A stretch of DNA of 64,000 bases from Minisyncoccota bacterium (GTDB lineage: Bacteria > Patescibacteriota > Minisyncoccia > UBA6257 > UBA9933). The notes beneath the pieces were generated by a model that had not been told where the DNA came from, ran no database searches, and saw only the letters and a list, made by a program, of their open reading frames with translations. Where the stretch lies: positions 2,998 to 66,997 of the forward strand of contig JBAZLC010000001.1 in NCBI GenBank assembly GCA_041650415.1, in the 5' to 3' direction. Position numbers and translations under genes: made by a program. The stretch's first letter is position 1. The number at the start of each line of letters is the position of its first letter. Positions 4,325-39,824 of the stretch are shown here, piece after piece.

Positions 4325-5374
4325 CTATTCTTCTTCCTCTTCTTCTTGGGGTTTATCCAAAGTAATCGGCTCTATATCAATTGCTTTGCCGGAAATTTTT
4401 AAGACGTCTTTATCTATTTTGCCAAGCTCCTTTGAAGCTTTATTATACATGCTGACTGTCGTTCCAAGATGGCCGCCAAGCTTTTGCATATAATTATCAA
4501 AACTTGAAATATGCCTGCCTAAATCTTCCACCCTCTTTCTGATTTCTTTGGCTGATTCTTCTATTTGCAAAGCTTTCAAACCCTGAAGAACCGTTTGAAG
4601 ATAAGCAAAGAACGAAGTTGGAGAAACAATAATTACTTTTTTGTCATTAAAAGCGTATTCAACCAAATCCTTGGCATTCACCGAACCGACTTTATTTATC
4701 AAGACGTCGTAAAAAACCGCTTCCGAAGGAATAAACATAAAAGCGAAATCCATGGTGTCTTCCGCCGGTTTAACGTATTTCGAAGTTTCATCTATCCTGT
4801 TTTTTAAATCCTGGCGGAAAAGATTTTCTAATCTCTCGCGTTCGCCTTCATCATGCGTTTCCAAAAGCCGGTTATAATTTTCCAAACTGAATTTTGAATC
4901 AACCGGTATTATTTTCTTGCCCACGAAAATGGCGGCGTCAACAATAAGCCCGTCTTTAAATTCATATTGCATTTGAAAATTATTCGGGGGCAGAACGTTT
5001 TTCAAAACCGTTTCCAAATAATATTCCCCCAAAATCCCCCGCTGTTTTGGATTTTTCAAAATATCCTGCAAACTTTTCAGCTGATCGGCGAAATTTACCA
5101 CTTGTCTATTTGTTTCATCAAGCTTAGTAAGCCGTTCGGTAACGTCGCGAATTATTCTGGCGCTTTCGCCGAATTGCCTTTGAAGCATTTGAGTTGATTC
5201 GCCAAGCTTAGTATCCAAAGTGCGGTTAATTTCATTTATCTGGCCTTGAATCATTAAAAGCGATTGGTCGTCTTTTTTTTCGCTCGAGTTCTTTTTAAGC
5301 TGCCAAAAAATCAGCCCGAGACCGCCCGCCAAAACTAAAACGATTACTATTAAAAAGATTGATGCCGCTTCCAT
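4325..5374 (-). CDS. rmuC: DNA recombination protein RmuC
   Basis: 349 aa with an N-terminal TM and coiled coil. The RmuC signature GILGEYYLETVL is present. Confidence 0.8.
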   Translation of the reverse strand: MEAASIFLIVIVLVLAGGLGLIFWQLKKNSSEKKDDQSLLMIQGQINEINRTLDTKLGESTQMLQRQFGESARIIRDVTERLTKLDETNRQVVNFADQLKSLQDILKNPKQRGILGEYYLETVLKNVLPPNNFQMQYEFKDGLIVDAAIFVGKKIIPVDSKFSLENYNRLLETHDEGERERLENLFRQDLKNRIDETSKYVKPAEDTMDFAFMFIPSEAVFYDVLINKVGSVNAKDLVEYAFNDKKVIIVSPTSFFAYLQTVLQGLKALQIEESAKEIRKRVEDLGRHISSFDNYMQKLGGHLGTTVSMYNKASKELGKIDKDVLKISGKAIDIEPITLDKPQEEEEEE

Positions 5375-5375
5375 T

Positions 5376-5939
5376 TTAATTATTTTTATTTTTTAATTTT
5401 CTATACAGGAAAAATCCCCAAACCAAAGCAAGCAAAGAATAATTTATTATCATGAACCACGTATTGCTCCAATTAAGGCCGTCAAATTTGAATCCGGAAA
5501 CCGGCCACAAAAACGGCGTGGGGAAAAATTGATAAGAATGACTGGGAATGTCTATTAGAATATGAAAAAACCAGCCGCCCAATTCCCAAATCGGCCGGCG
5601 GAAAATCAAATAAAGAATGCCGAAAACTACGGCGAAAATTATAAAGCTGTGGCTGATATTATAAAGCGATTTTGAAAGTTCAAGCACGCCATTAAGCTTT
5701 GGAGAGACTAACGGTTCCATTGTTTCAGGGCCAGGCAAATCAGACAAGCTAAATTTCCCAAAAAACAATCCGCCAAATATCCAAACGAAAGGAATTGAAA
5801 AAGAAAAGAAATCAGGAAAAACTCCCCATAAAGATGTTATCCAAATTTTAAGCGGCTTTTTTTGTTTTGGTTTTAAAGCAAAATCATTTACTCCCTTGGA
5901 AGCCGCGGCAGTCCAAAGACCGTGAGCAAAAATATCCAT
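5376..5939 (-). CDS. Membrane-bound metal-dependent hydrolase-like protein (YdjM/DUF457-like)
   Basis: 187 aa polytopic membrane protein. The N-terminus MDIFAHGLWT is typical of the YdjM family. Confidence 0.4.
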   Translation of the reverse strand: MDIFAHGLWTAAASKGVNDFALKPKQKKPLKIWITSLWGVFPDFFSFSIPFVWIFGGLFFGKFSLSDLPGPETMEPLVSPKLNGVLELSKSLYNISHSFIIFAVVFGILYLIFRRPIWELGGWFFHILIDIPSHSYQFFPTPFLWPVSGFKFDGLNWSNTWFMIINYSLLALVWGFFLYRKLKNKNN

Positions 5940-5977
5940 ATTGCTTAATTATATCCTAAAATCTTCCGACGACCAAA

Positions 5978-7126
5978 TTAAAAAGTTGATTTGCGGCCGT
6001 GCATTTTCTTCTCCACTTTTGCCATGGCCAATTTCATCGCCGCTTCGCGATGGCTGATTTTATGTTTGGCGCTTTCTTTAAGAACGCTTTTTGTAGTTTT
6101 AACGATTTTTCTTTCAATCATTTCAAACATTCTCTTGGGATTATATCCCCTGTATTCGGCATAAGAAGAAATGACGCCGCCGGCATTCGCCACAAAATCG
6201 GGCAATATTAAAATTCCTTTTTTCTCCAGATATTTTTCCGTTTCTTCAGACATCGGAATGTTCGCCGCTTCAATGATTATTTTTGCCTTTACGGAATCCC
6301 TGTTTTTCTCGTTGATAACGTCCGTAACCGAAGCGGGAATTAAAATATCCACGGGTAAACCGAAAATTTCTCCCGGTTTTATTTTTTTCCCTTTTGAACA
6401 GCCCGACACCGATTTCCCGCCGGCTTTCAATTTATCCAATTCGCCATTATCCAGACCGTCTTTACAATAAATTCCGCCGTGGATATCGGAAACCGCCACT
6501 ATTTTCGCTCCCAATTCCTTTAAAAATTTAAAAGCGAAAGAACCGACGTTTCCATAACCATCTATCGCCACTTCAATATCTTTCATATCAAGTCCCAAGA
6601 ATTCAACGACCGCTTTTGTCGCCTTTACCACGCCGAAACCGGTACTACCGTATTCGTGCGGAAGACCGCATTTCATTTCGCCGTTTTTTCCGGTCGATTT
6701 AAAACATAAATTCGCCGGCTTACCCGTCGCGGTGCGCGGATTGCCCGTCGCCTCCACAAACCATTTCATTTCCGTTTCGCCCGTGTTAACATCGGGTCCG
6801 GCAACATACCTTTTTATAAGCAACGGCTTTATTGCCCTGGCAAAACTCTGAATCATTTCTTTTTTACGTTCTCTGTCCGTTCCCGCGGGAAATTTTATCC
6901 CAGCTTTGGCTCCGCCAAAAGGAATATCCGCCAAAGCATTTTTCCATGTCATTGTCCGCGCCAAACGAAACACTTCTCCTTCGCTTACATCGGGCGTCAT
7001 TCTTATCCCGCCCTTGCCCGTTCCCAAAGCCGTATTATGTATAACTAAAAATCCTTCCAAACCTATTTTCGGGTCATGAATTTTAATAATGTATTCCGGT
7101 CCAAATTTGTCTTTAAATTTCTCCAT
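5978..7126 (-). CDS. Glu/Leu/Phe/Val dehydrogenase family protein (glutamate dehydrogenase-like)
   Basis: 382 aa. Contains the GGAKAGIKF catalytic lysine motif and a GYGNVG Rossmann NAD(P)-binding motif. Confidence 0.85.
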   Translation of the reverse strand: MEKFKDKFGPEYIIKIHDPKIGLEGFLVIHNTALGTGKGGIRMTPDVSEGEVFRLARTMTWKNALADIPFGGAKAGIKFPAGTDRERKKEMIQSFARAIKPLLIKRYVAGPDVNTGETEMKWFVEATGNPRTATGKPANLCFKSTGKNGEMKCGLPHEYGSTGFGVVKATKAVVEFLGLDMKDIEVAIDGYGNVGSFAFKFLKELGAKIVAVSDIHGGIYCKDGLDNGELDKLKAGGKSVSGCSKGKKIKPGEIFGLPVDILIPASVTDVINEKNRDSVKAKIIIEAANIPMSEETEKYLEKKGILILPDFVANAGGVISSYAEYRGYNPKRMFEMIERKIVKTTKSVLKESAKHKISHREAAMKLAMAKVEKKMHGRKSTF

Positions 7127-23229: not shown

Positions 23230-26200
23230 GGGTTAGAGACAAAATTAAGAGCATATGGTGGATGCCCTGACATCAAATGGCGATGAAGGACGTGGCGTGG
23301 CTGCGATAAGCTTCGGGGAGGCGCTTAGCAACCTGTGATCCGAAGATTTCCGAATGGGGAAACCTAATGCGGTAAACCCGCATTATCGTGTTATATAAAT
23401 TAATACGATGCGTACCCGCTGAAGTGAAACATCTCAGTAAGCGGAGGAAAAGAGAAAAACATTTATTCCCTTAGTAGCGGCGAGTGAAAAGGGACATAGC
23501 CCAAACCTATTTAAGTTTTCGCAAGAAAATTTTCGTGGGGGTTGTAAGACTTAGATATTTTAACTTCTAACCACTTTCGGTTTATTCCGATTGTGGTTAG
23601 CGGTTAATAATTTGTTACAAATTTTTTTGTTAGCCGAATCCGCTGGAAAGCGGAGCCATAGCGAGTGATAGCCTCGTAGGCGAAAACGAAAAAACAAATT
23701 TCTTTGTTCTTGAGTACTCCAAAGACAGCAAGCCTTGGAGGAACCCGCCAGCACTATCTGGCAAGGCTAAACACATTTGATGATCGATAGCGAACTAGTA
23801 CCGTGAGGGAAAGGTGAAAAGCAGGCCGGCGAGGCCGATGAAATAGAACCTGAAACCATATGTTTACAAGGAACGGAAGCTCTAAGTGCAGCAGCAATGT
23901 TGCGCGGAGCGACCGTGTGCCTATTGAAGAATGATCCAACGAGTTATTTTGCATTGCTTGTCTAAGCTCTACGGAGCGGAGGCGTAGCGAAAGCGAGTGT
24001 TAAAAGCGCGTTTTTAGGCAGTGCAAAATAGACCCGAAGCCAGACGAGCTTGCCTTGGCCAGGATGAAGTTTCGCGAAAGCGAAATGGAGGTCCGAACCA
24101 GTTGATTGTACAAAATCTTTGGATGAGCTGAGGTAAGGAGTGAAAAGCTAATCGAGTTTGGTAATAGCTGGTTCTCTCCGAAATAGTTTTAGGACTAGCG
24201 CTTCTGTAATATAGATCGGGGGTAGAGCACTGGATGAGCGGTAAAGGACGAAAGTTCGACCATTCAATCAAACTCCGAATACCGGTTTATTAAGAAGTAG
24301 TCAGAATGTGGGGGCTAAGCTCCATGTTCGAAAGGGAAAAAGCCCTGACCGACGTCTAAGGTCCCTAAATATTTGCTAAGTGTTAAAGGTAGTGATTCAC
24401 CAGAGACAGATAGAAGGTTGGCTTAGAGGTAGCCATCCTTTAAAGAGTGTGTAACAACTCACTATTCGATCGGTGAGTCGCGCCGAAAATTTACCGGGGC
24501 TAAGCAAATTACCGAAGACACGGATTCTCCAATTTTTAATTGGAGAGTGGTAGGAGAGCATTTCGGCCAGCACTGAAGGTCGACCCGCGAGGGCGACTGG
24601 AGCGGCCGGAAGAGAAAATGTTGGAATGAGTAACCACGAATGCCATTGAGAAAATGGCACCCCAAAAATCCTAGGTTTCCTCCGCAATGAAAATCAACGG
24701 AGGGTTAGGCGATCCTAAGGCAATGGCGAAAGCCGCAGCCGATGGACAGCAGGTTAATATTCCTGCCCTCCATTATTTTCCGATGAGAGTACGAAATTGA
24801 GTAGGTTGAGCGCCTTAATGGTTTGGCGTTCTCGAAAGAAGATGTTTGTTTGGTAAATCCGGCAGACTGCCTTTAATGGCGAATCTCAAAAAAGAGAAAA
24901 TTTCGCTTCGGCGAGAAATTCAGTTGAGCCAATTTCCAAGAAATTCCTCTAAGGATAAAAATAATGGATTCGTACCGGAAACCGACACAGGTGGATAGGG
25001 CGAGTAGCCCAAGGGGAACGAGTGATTTCTCGTTAAGGAACTCGGCAAAAAAGCGATCGTAAGTTAGCAATAAGATCTGCTCCACGCAAGTGGAGCCGCA
25101 GCGAAAGTACCCTGGCGACTGTTTAACAAAAACACAGCTCCCTGCGAACTCGTAAGAGGATGTATAGGGGGTGACACCTGACCGATGCGAGAAGGTTAAA
25201 GGTGGGAGTGTATGCAGCACTTATTTCACAAATTTTTGCGGAATAAGCGCTGTATATGCTCACTGCCCGAAGCCCTCGTCAATGTCAGCAGTAACTATAA
25301 CTGTTCTAAGGTAGCGCATTTCCTTTTCAGGTAAGTTCTGAAGCGCACGAAAGGTGTAACGACTGGGGGACTGTCTCAACGAGAAGCTCGGTGAAAATGC
25401 GATTCCCGTGAAGACGCGGGATACCTGCAACGGGACGAAAAGACCCCAGGAGCTTTACTGTAGCTTGATATTGGTTTTAAGATTTTGATGCGTAGCGTAG
25501 TGGGTAGCCTTTGAAGCTTTGATTTCGGTCAAGGTGGAGGCGACAATGAAACACCCATTTTTAAAATTTTAAAATCTAACCTGAACGGCAAAAACGTTCG
25601 GGAACAGTGTCTGGCGGGCAGTTTTTCTGGGGCGGAACCCTCCCAAAAAGTAACGGAGGGGTTTATAAAGGTTGGCTAAGCGCGGATGGAAATCGCGCAC
25701 GTCGTGTAAAGGCACAAGCCAGCTTAACGGCAAGGCTTACAAGCCGCGCCGGTACGAAAGTAGAACTTAGTGACCCGACGGCACTTTATAGAAAGGCCGA
25801 AGATAACGGATAAAAGTTACCCTGGGGATAACAGGCTGGTGTGGTCCGAGAGTCCATATCGACGACCACGCTCGGCACCTCGATGTCGGCTCGCCCTAGC
25901 GCCCGGCTGGAGAAGGTCGGAAGCGTTTGGCTGTTCGCCAATTAAAAGGGCACGCGAGCTGGGTTCAGACCGTCGAGCTCATAAACGAAAGTTTGTGGTC
26001 TGGACGGTTTGAGCCCGAGGCAAACGAAGACAAAATAAGACATCATCACAGCGGCCATAAAAAGTAATTTTTATGGACCACGTCAACTAATATCGGTGAA
26101 ATCCTATACTAATCCCGTAGGACAATACCGAGGGAACTTCGACAGAGATTTAAAAGTCGAAGAGACCCGTAGAGACTATACGTTGACCCCCCGCTAGAGC

Positions 26201-26615
26201 GGGGTGAAGATATAGTCCAATGCACTTAGTAATAAGTGGAAACATGTGTGAAACAGGTTGGTCTCTATCTGTTGCAGGCGATGACGCTTGAGGGAAGTTG
26301 ACCCTTGTACGAGAGGATCAGGTTGAACAAACCTCTGGTCTACCGGCTTTGCCACCAGGTGAAGCGCCGGGTAGCTATGTTTGGACGGGATAAGCGCTGA
26401 AAGCATCTAAGCACGAAGCCCCTCCCAAGATTAGGCGTCGTAGACTCGTGGAAGATTACCACGTTGATAGGCTTCAGGTATAAACGTAGCAATACGTGAA
26501 CATCATTTGATTAAGGATTGATGATTGACAGTTGAAGGTTTCGGCCGGAGATTGAAGATTTGAAGTTTGAGATTGAGTGACTAGCCGAGAAGTACTAATA
26601 AGTCATATGTCTCTA
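23230..26615 (+). rRNA. rrl: 23S ribosomal RNA (contains a roughly 273-nt group I intron)
   Basis: 5' end GGTTAGAG...GGTGGATGCCCTGACATC...GCGATGAAGGACG. Conserved domain V sequences and the 3' AAGCATCTAAGCACGAAG end are present. It is about 480 nt longer than the E. coli 23S. Confidence 0.9.
25976..26248 (+). other. Group I intron (ORF-less) in 23S domain V, at the position homologous to the I-CreI-type homing site
   Basis: The insert lies between the conserved GGGTTCAGACCGTCG and TGAAACAGGTTGGTCTC, where E. coli reads GAACGUCG-UGAGACAG. It contains the group I R element GTAGAGACTATACG, a P8-like hairpin CCCCCCGCTAGAGCGGGGTG and the S element AAGATATAGTCC. A GGACGGU internal guide pairs with the exon sequence ACCGUC. 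It has no ORF. Confidence 0.6.
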
Positions 26616-31499: not shown

Positions 31500-31616
31500 A
31501 ATTTTTATAATTTAATTAATAAATTGCGGCCTTTTTGATAATTATTAATTTTAATAATATTACTTCGTTTTAAAATAATCCGCAACTGCCGGCAAAATCA
31601 AAAAATGAAGGGTTTT

Positions 31617-32171
31617 TCATTTAATTAATTTCTGAATTTCTTTAAAAATATCCAACATCTCATCTTCAAAAATTACTGAAATAAATTTCTTTTTGTCGCT
31701 TGGAGAAATATTGAAAATTTTTTCAATCGGCCACACCTCAAATCCGATAGATTTTCCTTTCTCCACTATTAAATCTTCTACTCCTCCTTTATAAAGGTAC
31801 GCGTAAACAGCCCTTAACGCGTTATTTGTCATGCCGGTTACTTCATCAAAAATTTTGCTTTTTACGATTTTAATAAAATAAAGACTTTCTTTTTCCGCGT
31901 TTATTCCGGTTTCTTCTTTTATTTCTTGAATTGCCGTAGATTCGTAATTTGCGCCAATTTCAACATGACCTCCGACTGTCGCATCTAATAAATCTGGGAA
32001 GGTGTCTTTGTCTTTTTCTCGATGTTGAAAAATTATTTCCTTTTTTGGAGTATAAAACCAAACATGAATCTCTTTATGAAGTAATCCTTGCTTGTGAATA
32101 TTATCACGAGTTTCTTCGCCTATTATATTTCCACTTTCATCAACAATATTTAATCTTCTACTATCCGCCAT
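31617..32171 (-). CDS. NUDIX hydrolase
   Basis: 184 aa with a Nudix box (GGHVEIGANYESTAIQEIKEETGI). Confidence 0.75.
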   Translation of the reverse strand: MADSRRLNIVDESGNIIGEETRDNIHKQGLLHKEIHVWFYTPKKEIIFQHREKDKDTFPDLLDATVGGHVEIGANYESTAIQEIKEETGINAEKESLYFIKIVKSKIFDEVTGMTNNALRAVYAYLYKGGVEDLIVEKGKSIGFEVWPIEKIFNISPSDKKKFISVIFEDEMLDIFKEIQKLIK

Positions 32172-32175
32172 AAAT

Positions 32176-32592
32176 TTATTTTTGAATTTTTGAAAAGTCG
32201 CCGTCTATAACAATCGGCGACATAGCTTCTATTTCATCTCTATATCCGACGTTTGGAATTTCATGTAAAAGATAAATCGGTTTATTAAGAACAAAAGCAA
32301 ATCCCATCTCAAGAAAAGAATTGCCGCCAATATATCCTTTAATTCCATTACGCTCGGTATTTACAATAAGAACGGCATCTCCTTGTTTTATTATGTCAAA
32401 ATATCCCCGAATCAAATCATATTCAACCTTATTCCTTGCTGATTCCGTATGCATCTTATCAATCGCGTCCATAGCCGCATAATCATAAGTAAATTCGGGC
32501 AAAACAACTTCATGGCCTAATGATTTAAGCTCTTTTTCCGCTTTAACCATTTCTTTTGAAGCGGTCATGCTGCCGCAAATAACGATTTTCAT
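32176..32592 (-). CDS. Nucleoside 2-deoxyribosyltransferase-like (Rossmann-like) protein
   Basis: 138 aa with N-terminus MKIVICGSM and a GGNSF...EMGFAF segment. Assignment is tentative. Confidence 0.35.
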   Translation of the reverse strand: MKIVICGSMTASKEMVKAEKELKSLGHEVVLPEFTYDYAAMDAIDKMHTESARNKVEYDLIRGYFDIIKQGDAVLIVNTERNGIKGYIGGNSFLEMGFAFVLNKPIYLLHEIPNVGYRDEIEAMSPIVIDGDFSKIQK

Positions 32593-32637
32593 ATATTAAT
32601 AAAATTTTGACATATTTCATACGCCAAAATTTTTTGA

Positions 32638-32656
32638 TGTGCCCGGGGTGGGATTC
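32638..32656. repeat. Duplicate of the 3' end of tRNA-Leu (19 nt) with a degenerate tRNA-like remnant
   Basis: TGTGCCCGGGGTGGGATTC occurs at 32638-32656 and again at 32733-32751, the genuine 3' end of tRNA-Leu. On the minus strand the first copy forms a truncated T-arm plus acceptor (GGGGAAUCCCACCCCGGGCA). It is preceded by GCGCGGGGGAGCGAAGCGUUUGGGAUUCGAAGG. Confidence 0.5.
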
Positions 32657-32734
32657 CCCTTCGGGCCGGGCCTCTTGGCCTTCGAATCCCAAACGCTTCG
32701 CTCCCCCGCGCACTGCGTTCGTTTCACTCACTTG

Positions 32735-32817
32735 TGCCCGGGGTGGGATTCGAACCCACAAACCCTTTCGAGTCAAGGATTTTAAGTCCTCTGCGTAAAC
32801 CGTTCCGCCACCCGGGC
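32735..32817 (-). tRNA. tRNA-Leu (anticodon UAA)
   Basis: Type II tRNA. Acceptor GCCCGGG/CCCGGGC, anticodon loop CUUAAAA, long variable arm, T-arm GUGGG-UUCGAAU-CCCAC. Confidence 0.8.
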
Positions 32818-33273: not shown

Positions 33274-34734
33274 TTAGTATATCAATTTATCTCCGGCTTT
33301 TATTTCCGCTTCGGAATCCAAGAGAATTCCGCATTCCTCTTCTTCACCAACAAGACTCGTGTCTGCTTTGCCTTTTTGAAGATTTATCACTCTTCCCCTG
33401 CCGATGCTTTTTTCATCCCTTAAGATTTCAACCGAAGAATTTTTCTTGAATTCGCCAATTTCGCATTTTCCGCCAATTACTTGCCTGTTTCCTTTTTTGC
33501 CGAAAACCGCCAAAATTTTCATTTCATTGCTTTTTTCCGGCTCCTGAAGAGCTTTTACTTCTTCTTCTATTTTTTTCAAAAGCTCGTAGATTATTTCCGA
33601 AGAAATTATTTTAACATCCTGAACTTTCGCCAAATTCTCCGCCGCTTTGCTTACCTTTGCCTTGAAAGACGCAATAATTGCTTTCGAGCTTGAAGCGTTT
33701 TTAACGTCGGTATCCGTAATATCGCCGATTCCTTCATGAATAATCCGGACATCCGGCATTGTTTTTATTATTTCTGAAATCGCTTCCAAAGAACCGGAAA
33801 CGTCCGCCTTAAGAATCAATTTAACCAAAGTCTCGACATTTTCCCCGTTTTCATCAACCGACGGGACAAAAGCGCCGTTTGTTTTTCCAAGAGGCGCTAT
33901 CATAAATTCCGATAAATCCACTTTGCCGCTGAAAAATTCGTCGCCTATTTGAGGCAAACTTTCAAAGCCCAATATCAAAGCCGGGCTTGAAGGCGAAAGT
34001 TCTTTTACTTTCTCGCCCAAAAAGTTTTCCAAAATTTTCACTTTCCCCACTGCGCCCGAAGCGACAATGTCATCTCCCTGTCTCAAAACGCCGTTTTTCA
34101 CTATGGCGGCAACCGTCAATCCCCTGCGATTATCCATTTTGGATTCAATGATAAATCCGTTCGCTCTCGCCTCGGGATCATATTTCAAATCTTCCATCTC
34201 GGCCGCCAAAAGAATCAAATCCAAAAGCTCGTTCACGCCTTCGCCGGTTTTCGCCGAAATTCCCTGCCAGGAAATATTTCCGCCAAAACCTTCAAGTAAA
34301 AGTCCGGCTTTCGCCAAATCGGCTTTCGTTCTGTCGATGTCGGCGTTATTTCTGTCTATTTTATTCAAAGCAACCACAAACGGAGTCTTGCTTTCAAGTA
34401 AAACCTCAATCGCTTCTTTTGTTTGCGGTTTGACTCCTTCATCGGCGGCAACAACCAAAATTCCCAAGTCCGCCGCTTTGGCTCCACGTTGGCGCATTTT
34501 TGAAAAAGCCGCATGCCCGGGTGTGTCTATGAAAGTGATTTTCTTGCCCGCGTGCGTGATTTCATAAGCGCCGGTTGCCTGGGTTATTCCACCGGCTTCT
34601 TTTGCCACAACATTCGTCTTGCGGATATAATCAAGTAAAGTGGTTTTGCCGTGGTCAACGTGCCCCAAAACAACGACTATCGAAGAACGAGGAATTAGGT
34701 TTTGGGTTTTAGTTTTTAGGTTTTGGGATTCCAT
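33274..34734 (-). CDS. infB: Translation initiation factor IF-2 (short form, N-terminal domains absent)
   Basis: 486 aa. G domain (VVLGHVDHGKTTLLD, DTPGH, NKID), then beta-barrel and C-terminal domains. It abuts rbfA. Confidence 0.9.
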   Translation of the reverse strand: MESQNLKTKTQNLIPRSSIVVVLGHVDHGKTTLLDYIRKTNVVAKEAGGITQATGAYEITHAGKKITFIDTPGHAAFSKMRQRGAKAADLGILVVAADEGVKPQTKEAIEVLLESKTPFVVALNKIDRNNADIDRTKADLAKAGLLLEGFGGNISWQGISAKTGEGVNELLDLILLAAEMEDLKYDPEARANGFIIESKMDNRRGLTVAAIVKNGVLRQGDDIVASGAVGKVKILENFLGEKVKELSPSSPALILGFESLPQIGDEFFSGKVDLSEFMIAPLGKTNGAFVPSVDENGENVETLVKLILKADVSGSLEAISEIIKTMPDVRIIHEGIGDITDTDVKNASSSKAIIASFKAKVSKAAENLAKVQDVKIISSEIIYELLKKIEEEVKALQEPEKSNEMKILAVFGKKGNRQVIGGKCEIGEFKKNSSVEILRDEKSIGRGRVINLQKGKADTSLVGEEEECGILLDSEAEIKAGDKLIY

Positions 34735-34864: not shown

Positions 34865-34953
34865 GGAGGCGTGGCTGAGCGGTCTAAAGCGACACGGTGC
34901 TAACGTGCTAAGGGCGTTAAACCCCTTCAGAGGTTCGAATCCTCTCGCCTCCG
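34865..34953 (+). tRNA. tRNA-Ser (anticodon GCU)
   Basis: Type II tRNA. Acceptor GGAGGCG/CGCCUCC, anticodon loop GUGCUAA, long variable arm AAGGGCGUUAAACCCCUUC, T-arm GAGG-UUCGAAU-CCUC. Confidence 0.75.
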
Positions 34954-35000
34954 CAATAATTTTCAATATGCCTTTTTGGCATAATTGAAAATTACTACGC

Positions 35001-35232
35001 GGGGCGAATGAGGATTCGAAGACCGCAGCGTAGCGCGAGTTTCACGAAGTGAAGGCGAGCGCCGCGAGGGGCGGCCTGCGAAAAATTTCCGTCAGGAAAT
35101 TTATTTGCAGGCGAATCCTCTCTCAATTACAGTCTAGAGTCGCTGGCGAATCCTCTGCCTGCCGATAGGCAGGCTTAGTGAAAATTTACTTGTAGGCGAA
35201 TCCTTTCACTCTTACAATTTTTCGCCCCCACC
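35001..35232 (+). ncRNA. ssrA: tmRNA-like RNA (candidate ssrA) with an atypical 3' end
   Basis: The 5' end GGGGCGA-AUGA-GGAUUCGAAG matches the tmRNA consensus GGGGnUG-AUUCU-GGAUUCGAC. The PK1-like segment GCCGCGAGGGGCGGCCUGCGAAAAA resembles E. coli GCCGAGGGGCGGUUGGCCUCGUAAAAA. A candidate tag frame GCG AAU CCU CUG CCU GCC GAU AGG CAG GCU UAG UGA encodes ANPLPADRQA followed by two stops. The 3' UUCGCCCC can pair with the 5' GGGGCGAA. No canonical T-arm, G3-U70 pair or CCA is found, and a strong hairpin terminator follows. Confidence 0.4.
35096..35217 (+). repeat. Three imperfect direct repeats containing GGCGAATCCT inside the tmRNA-like locus
   Basis: aggcgaatcctctc (35109), tggcgaatcctctg (35144) and aggcgaatcctttc (35204). 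The first and third extend to about 37 nt (aaatttaYttgYaggcgaatcctYtc...ttaca). Spacing is irregular at 35 and 60 nt. Each resembles the RNA 5' end GGGGCGAAU. Confidence 0.5.
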
Positions 35233-35245
35233 CCGGGGGCTTTTT
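35222..35245 (+). terminator. Rho-independent terminator (GCCCCC-ACCCC-GGGGGC followed by T5)
   Basis: A six-bp all-GC stem followed by TTTTTAATT, immediately after the tmRNA-like RNA. Confidence 0.6.
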
Positions 35246-35247
35246 AA

Positions 35248-35276
35248 TTGACAAATACATAAATTTGTGCTATATT
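35248..35276 (+). promoter_or_regulatory. Sigma70-like promoter TTGACA-17-TATATT for islet gene A
   Basis: ttgacaaatacataaatttgtgctatatt. It is followed by a roughly 130-nt structured leader. Confidence 0.5.
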
Positions 35277-35408
35277 CCCTACATCAACAAAGCCAAAAGC
35301 TTGTTGGGCCGTTAATAAGCCTATCTCTGGCTTATACCGCAGAATACCGAATGTTTCGGTATAGCGATCCAATTCTGGTGGCGGGAAATCTCTGAAAGGA
35401 GATAAAAA

Positions 35409-35768
35409 ATGAGACCGACTAGACAGTACCTTATAAATCTTACAAATCATCTCATCGGCAAAAACCGTTATGATGAACTTTTTAAATTCATCAATAACCC
35501 AGACAAGTTCATCGGCCACGCCAAAATTGCCCTCGAATACGGCGACGTACATGATATGTCCCCTGAGACTCTCGGGAAAATCATGTGTGCATTCGAAATC
35601 GGAGACGTTATGGCGACCAAGAAGGAACTCTTCGACGAGATTCTCTTCAATGGAAGCTGTGAAGACTTTCTTCGCGAATTTGTCTCTCTATGCCTCGCAT
35701 ATTTCATCAGAGACAGGCTTACTGGCGAATGCAAACCCAAATGGGAAAGAAGTTGCAAAACCCGATGA
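35409..35768 (+). CDS. Islet gene A: hypothetical 119-aa protein
   Basis: Consensus Shine-Dalgarno GAAAGGAGATAAAAAATG. Codon usage is atypical for this genome, with many C-ending codons. The protein (MRPTRQYLINLTNHLIGKNRYDELFKF..., 5 Cys) has no recognisable family. A terminator lies at 35786-35826. Confidence 0.5.
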   Translation: MRPTRQYLINLTNHLIGKNRYDELFKFINNPDKFIGHAKIALEYGDVHDMSPETLGKIMCAFEIGDVMATKKELFDEILFNGSCEDFLREFVSLCLAYFIRDRLTGECKPKWERSCKTR

Positions 35769-35785
35769 GACCACAAAGGACAGCA

Positions 35786-35826
35786 GCCCCGACCCAGCAA
35801 CGGTGTTCGGGGCTTTGTTTTTTATA
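35786..35826 (+). terminator. Rho-independent terminator after islet gene A
   Basis: GCCCCGA...TCGGGGC stem followed by TTTGTTTTTTA. Confidence 0.5.
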
Positions 35827-35830
35827 GAAA

Positions 35831-35859
35831 TTGACATTTTTTAATAAATAAGTTAAATA
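35831..35859 (+). promoter_or_regulatory. Promoter TTGACA-17-TAAATA for islet gene B
   Basis: ttgacattttttaataaataagttaaata, directly upstream of the gene B Shine-Dalgarno. Confidence 0.4.
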
Positions 35860-35931
35860 GTATTCAAAGGCTCATTAAGAAACGGGGAAGGAAAAACAAT
35901 ACCTTTTACCATAAATAAAAAGGAGGTTGCC

Positions 35932-36207
35932 ATGGGAAAATTGTCAGCCGAGCGTCATATTGGAACTCGCGTCATCATGTGCCCCAGAAGAGGCGGGGCA
36001 TGCGACCCAAAAGAACCCAAAAATGGAGTTCCGGAAGGAAATGGATGCGCAAACTGCGCAGAGCTTCTGCGGATGGCTATGGAGAAACTGATGATGACTC
36101 CAAGCTGCCCCAAAACGCATACGCCTTGCAACCCCGTGGGAAAACCGCCGAACCACTGCAACGGGTGCGAAGGAATCATTATCCACATGGAAAGCCAACG
36201 AGCTTAA
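35932..36207 (+). CDS. Islet gene B: Cys-rich 91-aa protein with a tandem-duplicated C-x6-C...C-x2-C motif (putative double zinc ribbon)
   Basis: Consensus Shine-Dalgarno AAAAAGGAGGTTGCCATG. Local GC is about 52%. Eight Cys fall in two homologous units: MCPRRGGACDPKEPKNGVPEGNGCANC and SCPKTHTPCNPVGKPPNHCNGC. ORFs are open on several overlapping frames because of the GC content, and the frame carrying the Shine-Dalgarno was chosen. A terminator lies at 36222-36249. Confidence 0.5.
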   Translation: MGKLSAERHIGTRVIMCPRRGGACDPKEPKNGVPEGNGCANCAELLRMAMEKLMMTPSCPKTHTPCNPVGKPPNHCNGCEGIIIHMESQRA

Positions 36208-36221
36208 TCCTGTCCCCTAAG

Positions 36222-36249
36222 GGGCGACTCACAAAGTCGTCCCTTTTTA
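36222..36249 (+). terminator. Rho-independent terminator after islet gene B
   Basis: GGGCGACT-CACAA-AGTCGTCC stem followed by CTTTTTACT. Confidence 0.5.
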
Positions 36250-36330
36250 CTATTTTCAAATTAATAATTGGCTTATAATAAAGAAAGTAAAGAATGTAAA
36301 AGCTCGTTAATAATCAAGGAGGACTAAATC

Positions 36331-36624
36331 ATGACTATTCATGCAAATGTTGTATGGGTACAGACGACCGGTCGAAAAATTCCGGTTCGTGTCGATGGCG
36401 TCGTTGTCGATTGCGATGAATTTGAAGTAATTTCCTGCGATGCCGAGCCAGAGAAAAGAAAACTGACTCGCAGGAAAAGCGAAGAAATTTTCAGAAAGGG
36501 CGGTAGTGTACTTTTTTGGATATCTACCATGGAAACCCTAATCAGTGTCGGACAATTGCTAAATAAGTACGACATCGACTCCATACGAGAAAAAGGCGTG
36601 GATGTACGTGTCCATAATCAATAA
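36331..36624 (+). CDS. Islet gene C: hypothetical 97-aa protein
   Basis: Consensus Shine-Dalgarno AATCAAGGAGGACTAAATCATG. The protein MTIHANVVWVQTTGRKIPVRVDGVVVDCDEF... has no recognisable family. Terminator GGGCGG...CCGCCC with T5 at 36633-36660. Confidence 0.5.
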   Translation: MTIHANVVWVQTTGRKIPVRVDGVVVDCDEFEVISCDAEPEKRKLTRRKSEEIFRKGGSVLFWISTMETLISVGQLLNKYDIDSIREKGVDVRVHNQ

Positions 36625-36632
36625 AACCCAAA

Positions 36633-36660
36633 GGGCGGCCCCGCGAGACCGCCCTTTTTC
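36633..36660 (+). terminator. Rho-independent terminator ending the islet
   Basis: GGGCGG-CCCCGCGAGA-CCGCCC followed by TTTTT. Confidence 0.55.
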
Positions 36661-36728
36661 TTACCATACAATTTTAATAAATAATACGCTGTAACATATT
36701 ATTTATCAAAGCTAAAATTACCTGTTTT

Positions 36729-36902
36729 TTATTTTCCTCTCGCAACTTTTAGGCCCAATGTGACAAAAATTATTCCCAATACGGTAAACGCCGGATTTTT
36801 TATATCCCAGTCCAAAATATAACTAAAAGCGTTTATTAAAATCATTGCAAACCCTATACCTGCCATTAAATATCCTTTTATATTATTTTTGTTTTTATCC
36901 AT
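36729..36902 (-). CDS. Small two-TM membrane protein (57 aa, below the ORF-track cutoff)
   Basis: MDKNKNNIKGYLMAGIGFAMILINAFSYILDWDIKNPAFTVLGIIFVTLGLKVARGK. Its start is 3 nt after the stop of the antiporter gene. Confidence 0.3.
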   Translation of the reverse strand: MDKNKNNIKGYLMAGIGFAMILINAFSYILDWDIKNPAFTVLGIIFVTLGLKVARGK

Positions 36903-38610: not shown

Positions 38611-38612
38611 TG

Positions 38613-38697
38613 CGGAGGGTACAGGATTCGAACCTGTGATGCCTTTCGGCATATTCGCTTTCCAAGCGAACGCACTAGACCGCTATGCGAACCCTCC
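38613..38697 (-). tRNA. tRNA-Ser (anticodon GGA)
   Basis: Type II tRNA. Acceptor GGAGGGU/ACCCUCC, anticodon loop UUGGAAA, variable arm UAUGCCGAAAGGCAUC, T-arm CAGG-UUCGAAU-CCUG. Confidence 0.8.
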
Positions 38698-38702
38698 AGG
38701 TC

Positions 38703-39131
38703 TTATTTTTTCTTTTTTAATTTTTCCATCTGCCTGCGAACTATTTGTTCATTGCCTATATTACTCACATACATCCAAAACGCATGAACTGATTTATATT
38801 CCGGATCAATTTCATCATCTTTCCCTTTAAATTTAGACAATGCTTCACCGCGTAAATCCATAAATTCTTCTAATTCTAATTCTCCTTTTTTATATTTTTC
38901 GTATATTTTCATTTCCGCTTCGGATAAAAATTCCGGCTCGATTAAATCGAAATGTGGATTGTAAGTTTCTCCTTTTCGACCGCGAGCCTCCCAGGCTTCT
39001 TTTTTCGTCATTTCTTCAGCTTTAATTCCCGCAATTTCGTTTTGGAAATTATCAAACTTTTCTTCCGGAGATAATTCTTGATTATTTAATTGTTCTTCAA
39101 AGTTTTCCATAAATAATTTATTTATTACCAC
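38703..39131 (-). CDS. Hypothetical acidic protein
   Basis: 142 aa Glu/Lys-rich. No family recognised. Confidence 0.4.
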   Translation of the reverse strand: MVINKLFMENFEEQLNNQELSPEEKFDNFQNEIAGIKAEEMTKKEAWEARGRKGETYNPHFDLIEPEFLSEAEMKIYEKYKKGELELEEFMDLRGEALSKFKGKDDEIDPEYKSVHAFWMYVSNIGNEQIVRRQMEKLKKKK

Positions 39132-39780
39132 TTTCCAATTTTTCTTTTTCTAAAACTTCCGAATAGGTTTTAACTTGATTCCTGCCTCCGTTTTCTCCGT
39201 GTTTGGCCGCGTACATCGCCTTGTCCGCGCGCTTTATCAATTCATCAAAACCGACTTCTCCCTCGGACGCGCTAACGCCTATGCTTAATGAAACATTTGT
39301 TCCTTCCTTGATTTTTTTTCTTAATTCCTCGGCTTTCTCGGCCGCTTCTTTTTCATCCGCGCCCAATAAGCTTACTATCATCTCCTCTCCTCCCCAACGG
39401 CAAACCGTATCGCTTTCACGAACATTCTCTTCAAGTATTTTCGCCACTTTTTTTAGAACTTCGTCGCCGGCATCATGCCCCAATTCGTCATTAACTTTTT
39501 TAAAATAATCTATATCGCAAAATAAATAACTGACATTACTAAACCCCTCTTCTCTTTTTTCAGCCGCGGGATTAGTAATTGCCGAAAGATTATCTTCCGC
39601 CTCTTCAATAAAATATTTCCGGGTTTTTAAGCCGGTCAAGCTATCATGAATCAAATCCTCTTTTAATTTAGCGTTCTCTATTTTCAGCTCCGCGTTTTCA
39701 GCTTCAAGAAACTCTACTCTTTGTCTTAATGTTTCAGCTTCGCTGATTTCAATTTTTTCCGCTCCTTCAAATTTTTCCAT
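39118..39780 (-). CDS. Diguanylate cyclase (coiled coil plus GGDEF)
   Basis: GGDEF domain with RWGGEEM active-site motif and DSLTGLKTRKYF. The listed ORF extends to 39939 through an out-of-frame W/R-rich read of the upstream Gly-rich region. The start was moved to MEKFEGAEK at 39780. Confidence 0.75.
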   Translation of the reverse strand: MEKFEGAEKIEISEAETLRQRVEFLEAENAELKIENAKLKEDLIHDSLTGLKTRKYFIEEAEDNLSAITNPAAEKREEGFSNVSYLFCDIDYFKKVNDELGHDAGDEVLKKVAKILEENVRESDTVCRWGGEEMIVSLLGADEKEAAEKAEELRKKIKEGTNVSLSIGVSASEGEVGFDELIKRADKAMYAAKHGENGGRNQVKTYSEVLEKEKLESGNK

Positions 39781-39824
39781 TTTTATATTAGATATTAGAT
39801 TACAGATACTAGATTCTAATTCAA

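Follow-up and report, generated by a model that had tools for sequence, protein, structure and literature searches.

A variable islet beside tRNA-Ser(GCU) in a Patescibacteria genome carries a CPR-specific cassette with a covarying leader RNA and a split Cys4 gene pair

Introduction

Patescibacteria, also called the Candidate Phyla Radiation (CPR), have tiny genomes, and little is known of how they gain accessory genes or regulate them. A 64,000-nucleotide (nt) stretch from an ultra-small CPR/Paceibacteria bacterium (contig JBAZLC010000001.1 of assembly GCA_041650415.1; hereafter the window, in whose positions coordinates are given unless another locus is named) raises this question in compact form: what are the three small genes, here A, B and C, that lie between the gene for tRNA-Ser(GCU) and a CaCA antiporter gene, and how did they come to be there? 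A first-pass annotation, made from the letters alone, had read positions 35246-36661 as a compositionally foreign remnant of an element integrated next to tRNA-Ser and the transfer-messenger RNA (tmRNA) gene ssrA, with a toxin/antitoxin-like, anti-phage or metal-binding cargo. Here we describe a larger islet whose presence and content differ between close relatives. We regard as solid a variable islet at the tRNA-Ser flank, a CPR-specific cassette with a covarying leader and a split/fused Cys4 pair, whilst the tmRNA, ssrA-hotspot, toxin-antitoxin and anti-phage parts of the earlier reading are not supported. The explanation that we think probable is that the islet is a strain-variable accessory segment of small, separately transcribed units, including the gene A cassette and the split pair B/C. 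These self-transcribed units would form neither a single operon nor a recognisable mobile element, and the locus would offer a concrete case, open to checking, of genes turning over beside tRNAs with no integrase in residence.

Results and discussion

The flank of tRNA-Ser(GCU) differs between close relatives

Two relatives, L005 and L006, were located by a scan with the neighbouring IF-2 protein, one genome being taken per species. The IF-2 amino acid (aa) identities were 0.906 between the window and L006, 0.891 between the window and L005, and 0.917 between L005 and L006. L005 is collinear with the window over ~20 kb at ~80% nucleotide identity. The features that define the comparison are as follows.

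34865..34954, + strand: tRNA-Ser(GCU), called by ARAGORN and by the Rfam tRNA model (50.5 bits); the conserved anchor.
34955..36891, no strand assigned: the whole variable islet, 1,937 nt, from blastn of L005 against the window with the junctions read.
36729..36902, - strand: a 57-aa putative membrane open reading frame (ORF) from the ORF list, mostly inside the variable segment; its status as a gene is uncertain.

By blastn, L005 6010-7818 corresponds to window 38710-36892 and L005 7848-7942 to window 34954-34860, the latter match covering the tRNA (93% identical). Between tRNA-Ser and the CaCA antiporter region L005 has ~30 nt, a small hairpin, and lacks the whole of 34955-36891, which starts at the first base after the tRNA. 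Missing from L005 are an orphan RNA-like element (RNA X), genes A, B and C, and nearly all of the 57-aa ORF, of which just ATGGATAAAAA is left, its first 11 nt, reading MDKK-stop. The islet is thus larger than the span first proposed, adding RNA X and the 57-aa ORF to the three genes. Copies in two further samples, L085 and L086, are 99.995-100% identical.

At the same tRNA flank L006 carries a different cargo that includes a homologue of B and C. Adjoining its tRNA-Ser(GCU) (6426-6516), positions 4413-6393 on the - strand encode N6_N4_Mtase and RE_EcoO109I proteins, a complete type II restriction-modification pair, and an 84-aa membrane protein matches NCBIfam holin_4 (E 5.7e-13, under the curated cut-off; no PHROG match). 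Both the pair and the holin_4-like protein are placed between the tRNA and a gene in which C-like and B-like parts are fused, encoding protein P0021. For the other L006 genes neither L005 nor the window has a homologue; past the tRNA, then, L006 has been rearranged. The 57-aa ORF has no family match and no similarity to the L006 holin-like protein. The neighbourhood comparison proposed with the first-pass annotation, which looked for an insertion at tRNA-Ser, thus revealed an insertion/deletion polymorphism exactly at its 3' flank, with L005 empty and L006 differently filled.

No ORF in 34955-36891, nor any in the L006 segment, has a Pfam or NCBIfam match to an integrase or recombinase, and a repeat search of the window found no tRNA 3'-end repeat at the far border near 36891. 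Nor did a phage or plasmid origin find support: viral contigs gave no match to a profile of A, to P0021, to the 5' end of RNA X or to the pattern for the leader described below, and 50,697 phage records searched by tblastn gave none to A, B or P0021.

Gene A belongs to a cassette that recurs in CPR genomes

The three + strand ORFs of 119, 91 and 97 aa recognised at first reading are all in place. Each has its own strong Shine-Dalgarno sequence (SD), 5-8 nt before the ATG and reading AAAGGAGAT in gene A, and each is followed by its own hairpin terminator, those of B and C at 36219-36245 and 36630-36657. A near-consensus sigma70 promoter or a leader of its own had been claimed for each; such a promoter is present in A (11/12 in the promoter scan) and in no other, whilst B has a perfect -35 with a poor -10, C has a perfect -10 with no -35, and neither of the two was listed by the scan. 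As had been supposed, the three proteins fall in no recognisable family, with no Pfam, NCBIfam, PHROG, PADLOC or PDB-sequence match. Two features had been missed, the structured leader of A and the membership of A in a recurrent CPR cassette. The parts of that cassette are listed here.

35248..35276, + strand: promoter of gene A, TTGACA-17-TATATT with a TG, from the promoter scan.
35283..35408, + strand: conserved structured 5' leader of A, ~125 nt, from alignments A2-A6, RNAalifold and covariance model R1.
35409..35768, + strand: gene A, 119 aa, an ORF with 17 homologues.
35786..35823, + strand: terminator of gene A, read from the sequence, with a T-run after the hairpin; unique in the window.

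A search of 5.8 billion clusters returned 17 homologues of A at 42-66% identity, all restricted to CPR bacteria, and the alignment contains invariant residues in the MSPETLGKIMC and LCLAY regions. The AlphaFold2 model is all-alpha with a pLDDT of 86.8, for a protein that is near neutral (isoelectric point 6.8), and gave no significant fold match; for the C-B fusion a single-sequence AlphaFold2 run produced an unusable model (pLDDT 40). A MazG/HisE-like all-alpha NTP pyrophosphohydrolase was considered for A and rejected, the fold together with the acidic metal-binding motif (E-x2-E...E-x2-D) not being found.

All examined loci of A differ in genomic context, giving at least 13 unrelated CPR contexts. 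The loci are homologous from the -35 box, ~170 nt before the start codon, to just past the gene, and their flanks are unrelated. Promoter and leader are conserved throughout; within the -35 box, TTGAC varies little or not at all across 12 homologous loci. In 5 of 13 distinct loci A has a tRNA gene at a distance of ~400 nt or less (for Ser-GCU, Pro, Ile, Ser-UGA and Ala, respectively), well above the ~5% expected from a rough estimate. The terminator pairs GCCCCGA with UCGGGGC around an inner CCA-GCAA-UGG stem-loop, and a conserved terminator sequence, AGCCCCGACCCAGCAAYGGTGTTCGGGGC, with its GCAA-capped inner stem, is present in 7 of the 13. The 3' ends of the cassettes in the window, L088 and L097 are 91-93% identical, whilst their proteins are only ~60% identical. 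Gene A thus always occurs within one unit of promoter, leader, ORF and, often, the conserved terminator, a cassette that spans ~35246-35826 here and recurs as such across CPR genomes.

One genome pair, outside the window, hints at insertion cassette by cassette. L002 and L003 are 97% identical and differ by 561 nt directly upstream of the A promoter (L003 777-1337 against position 5828 of L002). The additional DNA in L003 has its own promoter, a 110-aa ORF, an A-type terminator and a 30-nt tail as in the 3' end of A, and a 14-nt repeat, imperfect between its two copies (TTAGCAAACTATAT and TTGGCTAATTATAC), flanks it; where L002 is empty the sequence is TTAGCGAATTATAC. A far-reaching version of these observations would make the A cassette a self-contained mobile CPR cassette, moved by recombination in trans at intergenic and often tRNA-flanking sites, with its GNRA-capped 3' module as the recombination site, its leader as a new riboswitch class that senses a small molecule or ion and B/C as a further, fast-evolving cassette drawn from the same pool; as a whole we think this improbable. 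Around the A cassettes of L001, L090 and L093 no convincing att-type repeats of tRNA 3' ends were found.

Several further observations concern gene A. A-type terminators were located at L088 1896-1914, L097 494-512, L096 1124-1142, L095 742-760 and L003 1280-1298; the hairpin is better conserved than the coding region and, in L003, also ends the different cassette with the 110-aa gene. Three homologues, P0011, P0013 and P0014, are ~200 aa long and have a C-terminal extension of ~70 aa without a Pfam match. In L093 (853-1251 and beyond) the DNA past the A stop codon seems, by eye, to encode part of the P0011 extension (e.g. EWTEKGWA), which suggests that the A gene there has undergone a frameshift or a recent split. 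On identical contigs in ENA and Logan, public gene calls place a 102-aa reverse-strand ORF across the A leader (35244-35552, -) and a 64-aa out-of-frame ORF (35650-35844, +) in the position of gene A. Both are spurious, given the conserved A family and its leader, and automatic gene callers therefore mis-call this region.

A covarying leader RNA precedes gene A

The leader (RNAalifold with manual inspection) folds into a hairpin, P0, followed by a three-way junction and then by a hairpin in which an anti-SD strand pairs with the SD (AUCUCU/AGGAGAU). The junction is made of a long-range helix P1 (CCGUUA/UGGCGG), a helix P2 with the conserved loop UAUCUCUG and a two-part P3, and its conserved unpaired nucleotides are GAUCC, GG and the UCUCUG of the P2 loop. 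The minimum free energy (MFE) fold of the window's own leader is the consensus.

In the model-based alignment 97.6% of cells are paired, against 34-49% in slid controls, and 22 of the 35 pairs show two-sided compensatory changes; not one of 500 shuffles reached the observed number of paired cells, of double-sided changes or the covariation score. The anti-SD/SD hairpin is 100% paired, L087 keeping it by a two-sided change from A-U to G-C. Covariance model R1 gave 16 matches of 78-140 bits, every one ending at the start codon of an A-family gene and none of the A-family genes in the set lacking one; the rest of the 181 kb searched, to which the window, L005 and L006 belong, had no match. When the metagenome collection was scanned with a degenerate pattern made from the leader's 3' part, five loci came up, all five with an A-family ORF directly downstream. 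The leader is linked exclusively to gene A in these searches.

Rfam 15 contains no family for this RNA. The best match, freshwater-2, was seen in the window only and scored 23 bits where 49.9 are required (E 0.98); six other leader loci had no match over the leader. The leader is accordingly a new family relative to Rfam 15, with unusually clean covariation and restricted to these organisms.

The junction is placed immediately upstream of the anti-SD/SD hairpin. The leader most likely controls translation of A by occluding the ribosome-binding site, and a ligand or protein A itself, bound to the junction, would alter access to that site. If the leader does bind a ligand, it would be among the very few regulatory RNAs known from CPR bacteria and would give a way into what an orphan protein family does. 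An alternative, which we hold possible while leaning somewhat against it, is that the leader is not a metabolite riboswitch at all and is instead a protein-binding autoregulatory leader, recognised by protein A or another factor, or a structural stabiliser of the mRNA. Such a role would suit the tie to one gene family (16/16 covariance-model and 5/5 pattern matches), as in leaders of the ribosomal-protein type, and the lack of any alternative pairing found that would free the SD. Protein A, however, is near neutral and has no recognisable RNA-binding fold, and a three-way junction with conserved unpaired nucleotides resembles small-molecule aptamers. This alternative concerns the mechanism only.

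A leader peptide was considered and rejected, since the AUG in the P3 loop is missing in most homologues. A pseudoknot between the P2 loop and the SD is not supported: in L087 it is the adjacent anti-SD, and not the loop, that makes up for the SD change. As a separate observation, the motif AAARGCTYRTT occurs at 35295, 35866 and 36298, in the 5' regions of A, B and C, and also at 34223, 40768 and 62600, so that the window has six where 1.17 would be expected; the copy in A forms the 3' strand of hairpin P0.

Genes B and C correspond to a single gene in L006

The second half of the islet holds the following features.

35829..35931, + strand: promoter and 5' untranslated region (UTR) of gene B, with the -35 TTGACA at 35831-35836 and the SD AGGAGG at 35921-35926.
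35932..36207, + strand: gene B, 91 aa, an ORF whose first Cys4 unit is homologous to part of P0021 of L006.
36219..36245, + strand: intrinsic terminator after B, from the terminator scan, an 11-bp stem followed by a T-run.
36274..36330, + strand: 5' region of gene C, with TATAAT at 36274-36279, the SD AAGGAGGA at 36317-36324 and the motif AAAAGCTCGTT.
36331..36624, + strand: gene C, 97 aa, an ORF homologous to the N-terminal domain of the L006 fusion.
36630..36657, no strand assigned: bidirectional terminator after C, from the terminator scan.

Gene B encodes eight Cys in two homologous units, as first noted, each of the form C-x6-C-[DN]-P-x9-14-C-x2-C and each followed by a helix-like stretch. 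Word-indexed searches with B and C recovered only the queries themselves. An exhaustive HMMER search with C against 1.84 billion representative proteins gave P0021 as the sole non-self match (E 1.1e-4). P0021 is an intact ORF of 136 aa in L006, made up of a C-like domain and then one Cys4 unit. Over 95 aa, C aligns with its residues 1-94 at 31% identity (pairwise E 9e-14, and E 1e-9 in a search of 1.26 Mb), and its residues 95-133 align with unit 1 of B at 36% identity with all four Cys kept (E 1e-5 pairwise; E 0.004 against 1.26 Mb).

The correspondence extends to the non-coding DNA. Positions 35829-35882, upstream of B, are 83% identical to the region upstream of the L006 fusion gene; AAAAGCTCGTT is common to the leaders of C, B and the fusion gene (a shared leader segment, AAARGCTCRTT); and the C terminator resembles, by eye, that of the fusion gene (L006 3800-3845). 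The block from B to C is thus homologous end to end with the L006 gene, with the domain order permuted and the Cys4 unit duplicated. P0021 itself has no PADLOC match at E<=1 and no usable Pfam, NCBIfam, PHROG or PDB-sequence match.

This homology makes both B and C real genes. That they are spurious ORFs in non-coding DNA, a reading for which one might cite the self-only results of the word-indexed searches, the several overlapping ORFs in other frames and the atypical codon scores of B and C, is scarcely credible against protein homology to an intact ORF that has kept 4/4 Cys while the DNA diverged past blastn detection, and against a strong SD and a terminator on each gene.

As real genes, B and C are predicted from the fusion in L006 to act together, and they are two halves of one rare, lineage-restricted protein. 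B, a tandem Cys4 protein, probably binds metal, likely zinc, whereas C would be a mixed beta/alpha domain. With a single C-Cys4 polypeptide in the sister genome, at the same flank and with a homologous promoter and a similar terminator, B most likely works bound to C. A type II toxin-antitoxin pair was considered for B/C and rejected: a terminator and a 123-nt spacer lie between the two genes, there are no family matches, and in L006 a single fused gene encodes the homologues.

No tmRNA is recognisable in RNA X

The first-pass annotation had taken the RNA-like element directly downstream of the tRNA to be tmRNA, with an atypical 3' end, and had drawn on it for the idea of an integration hotspot.

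34996..35246, + strand: RNA X, an orphan structured RNA-like element, from MFE folding, the terminator scan and the repeat search.

RNA X folds strongly (MFE -105.5 kcal/mol, z -4.9 against shuffles), and its 3' end is an intrinsic terminator at 35224-35245. It contains three direct copies of GGCGAATCCT, at 35110, 35145 and 35195, which are part of a longer match, CGAATCCTCTC, to the T-arm of tRNA-Ser (its 3' half); one inverted copy lies at the 5' end of RNA X. The window holds five matches of the CGAATCCTCTC type against 1.06 expected, a number reached in 0/100 shuffles, with copies at 35112-35207, in the proximal end of the islet.

The first 21 nt of RNA X, GGGGCGAAUGAGGAUUCGAAG, resemble the tmRNA 5' ends of E. 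coli and B. subtilis ssrA. The detection programs nevertheless gave no tmRNA. ARAGORN found none at its default or -ps (95%) setting, and its single call at an 80% threshold, a 'permuted' one, takes its acceptor from the 3' end of tRNA-Ser; the Rfam tmRNA models did not match RNA X at the gathering score or, with the cut-off relaxed to E<=10, in searches of 2.1 kb and of 266 nt, the one weak match (tmRNA_permuted, 21 bits against a threshold of 47) lying over the tRNA-Ser 3' end. In the closing stem, GGGGCGAA/UUCGCCCC, G3 is paired with C, in place of the G3:U70 pair; the 3' strand is preceded by ACAAUUUU, without a T-arm, and the 3' tail is CACCCC, without CCA. A displaced tmRNA 3' end, TTCGCCCCACCA, sought with up to two mismatches, gave chance-level matches only. 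No homologue of RNA X was found at the orthologous site in L005 or L006, in 1.26 Mb of loci or in viral contigs; its absence from both relatives speaks against a housekeeping gene conserved at this locus. With the program results and the missing G3:U70, T-arm and CCA, tmRNA is an attractive annotation that is not supported. RNA X could be an orphan small RNA or an array of tRNA-end scars, and in the explanation that we favour it would be an orphan, strongly folding element carrying tRNA T-arm-like repeats.

As RNA X cannot be recognised as tmRNA, and as the variable segment includes it, the ssrA-hotspot argument falls. What this leaves of the larger idea, a decayed element integrated at a tRNA-Ser/ssrA hotspot with tmRNA alongside and a toxin-antitoxin, anti-phage or metal-related cargo, is a presence/absence polymorphism at a tRNA 3' flank and, as had been said, no integrase; the ssrA part and any repeat at the right border are lacking. 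The idea could further call on the CGAATCCTCTC copies (three direct, one inverted) in the first 250 nt of the islet, which could be att scars, on the tmRNA-like 5' end with its complementary 3' strand, and on the restriction-modification and holin-like genes at the same flank in L006. Set against these are the negative tmRNA searches, the G-C pair, the absence of RNA X from L005 and L006, the empty searches for a recombinase, and a cargo in which PADLOC (at E<=1) and PHROG found nothing and in which B and C, separated by a terminator here and fused in L006, are unlike a toxin-antitoxin pair. We consider this reading very unlikely, and prefer that of a strain-variable accessory segment made of small units with their own transcription signals.

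Composition and origin of the islet

The contrast in composition first claimed for the islet is a weak one, seen in the codon score and little in GC content. The window has a GC content of 39.9%; the span 35246-36661 has 43.8%, a value equalled or exceeded by 15% of equal-sized windows, and A (43.6%) and C (42.9%) exceed the mean of 47 native genes (39.3 +/- 4.1%) by roughly one standard deviation. B, at 52.9% (z 3.3), is the sole GC outlier of the three; its excess is at first and second codon positions (GC1 and GC2) and reflects its Cys/Gly/Pro/Ala-rich content, not a foreign mutational bias. The frequency of C at third positions (C3) is 0.26 in 7 native + strand genes against 0.18 in 40 - strand genes, so that the excess of C-ending codons in these + strand genes is partly a strand effect. 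The synonymous-codon log-likelihoods of A, B and C, on the other hand, are below those of 99.6-100% of 235 native 100-codon chunks (leave-one-out). That the islet is compositionally foreign is weakly supported.

A further explanation is that the segment is ancestral, vertically inherited and fast-evolving native cargo, deleted in L005 and rearranged in L006. It would account for a homologous C-B cassette with its promoter at the same tRNA flank in L006, for the first 11 nt of the 57-aa ORF retained in L005 and for GC in the native range, and the nearly equal IF-2 identities, with L005 and L006 slightly the closest, make one loss as parsimonious as two gains. The codon scores of A, B and C, below those of native chunks, do not fit it well. 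Nor does the divergence of C, 31% identical to its L006 counterpart against 90% for IF-2 and in a permuted domain order; the A cassette, moreover, occurs in unrelated contexts elsewhere, and L002 and L003 differ by one inserted cassette beside A at 97% identity. We judge this explanation unlikely.

For the explanation by a strain-variable accessory segment, in which cassettes may turn over horizontally at tRNA flanks, a number of points weigh on the other side. There is no integrase, transposase or flanking direct repeat, so horizontal acquisition would follow from presence/absence and codon usage only, and the GC content is not foreign. The near-trichotomy in IF-2 means that gain in the window and loss in L005 are not separable, and the C-B cassette, found at the same site in two of three genomes, could mean an ancestral segment deleted in L005. 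The leader, tied to one gene family, fits protein-binding autoregulation as well as a riboswitch, no switching alternative having been found that releases the SD. Finally, the single-sequence AlphaFold2 model of P0021 is unusable, so that zinc binding by B and contact between B and C are predictions from the sequence pattern and the fusion.

Other differences from L005 in the neighbourhood

Two more segments absent from L005 adjoin tRNA genes. Positions 31541-32733, next to tRNA-Leu(UAA) (32734-32817), contain a NUDIX hydrolase gene and a 138-aa orphan ORF at a low GC fraction of 0.26-0.35, and positions 38711-39824, next to tRNA-Ser(GGA) (38612-38697), contain a gene for a GGDEF diguanylate cyclase together with an orphan ORF of 142 aa, GC again being low (0.31-0.36). 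With the islet this makes three tRNA-adjacent segments differing from L005 within 8 kb. The 23S rRNA gene (23237-26532) is interrupted at 26034-26239 by a group I intron (Rfam RF00028, 60.2 bits); L005 lacks ~270 nt at window 25974-26246, and the intron is therefore polymorphic between close relatives.

Comparison with known systems

The resemblance of RNA X to tmRNA lies in a 5' GGGG-N7-GGAUUCGA like that of tmRNA 5' ends, a stem closed by a complementary 3' strand and a short open frame beginning with GCA. It differs in being negative in both detection programs, in lacking G3:U70, a T-arm and CCA, in a putative tag ending in RQA and not in the usual hydrophobic ending (typically AA), and in not being conserved at the locus in relatives.

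Set beside tRNA-linked genomic islands, the islet differs in lacking an integrase or recombinase and a tRNA 3'-end repeat at the far border, in its size of 1.9 kb, in its native-range GC and in being composed of self-promoted mini-cassettes. It is like them in lying directly 3' of a tRNA, in presence/absence and cargo differences among relatives, in the restriction-modification genes of the sister genome and in its atypical codon score. The comparison with integron cassette arrays is suggested by short single-gene units, by the 3' hairpin module common to the neighbouring cassettes of L003 and by the insertion polymorphism of L002/L003 with its imperfect 14-nt repeats. Here, however, the cassettes are each served by a separate promoter, neither an IntI-type integrase nor attI was seen, and the hairpin has the look of an ordinary intrinsic terminator; the polymorphism comes from one genome pair and not from this window.

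The leader of A differs from translational riboswitches and ribosomal-protein-type leaders in having no Rfam 15 match, in serving a single orphan gene family and in the absence of a switching helix among the pairings found. Like both classes it occupies the 5' UTR and covaries strongly, and its anti-SD/SD hairpin directly follows, on the 3' side, a multi-stem junction with conserved unpaired nucleotides.

Gene B, lastly, departs from Cys4 zinc-ribbon and zinc-knuckle modules in its first pair, C-x6-C and not C-x2-C or C-x4-C, in having no Pfam or PDB match and in a family that consists of B and one homologue; like them it has units of four Cys in two pairs, here in tandem. Together with C it resembles the 'Rosetta-stone' pairs that are split in one genome and fused in another, the Cys4 unit being joined in L006 to the product of its partner gene, and this gives a directly testable prediction of a protein-protein interaction.

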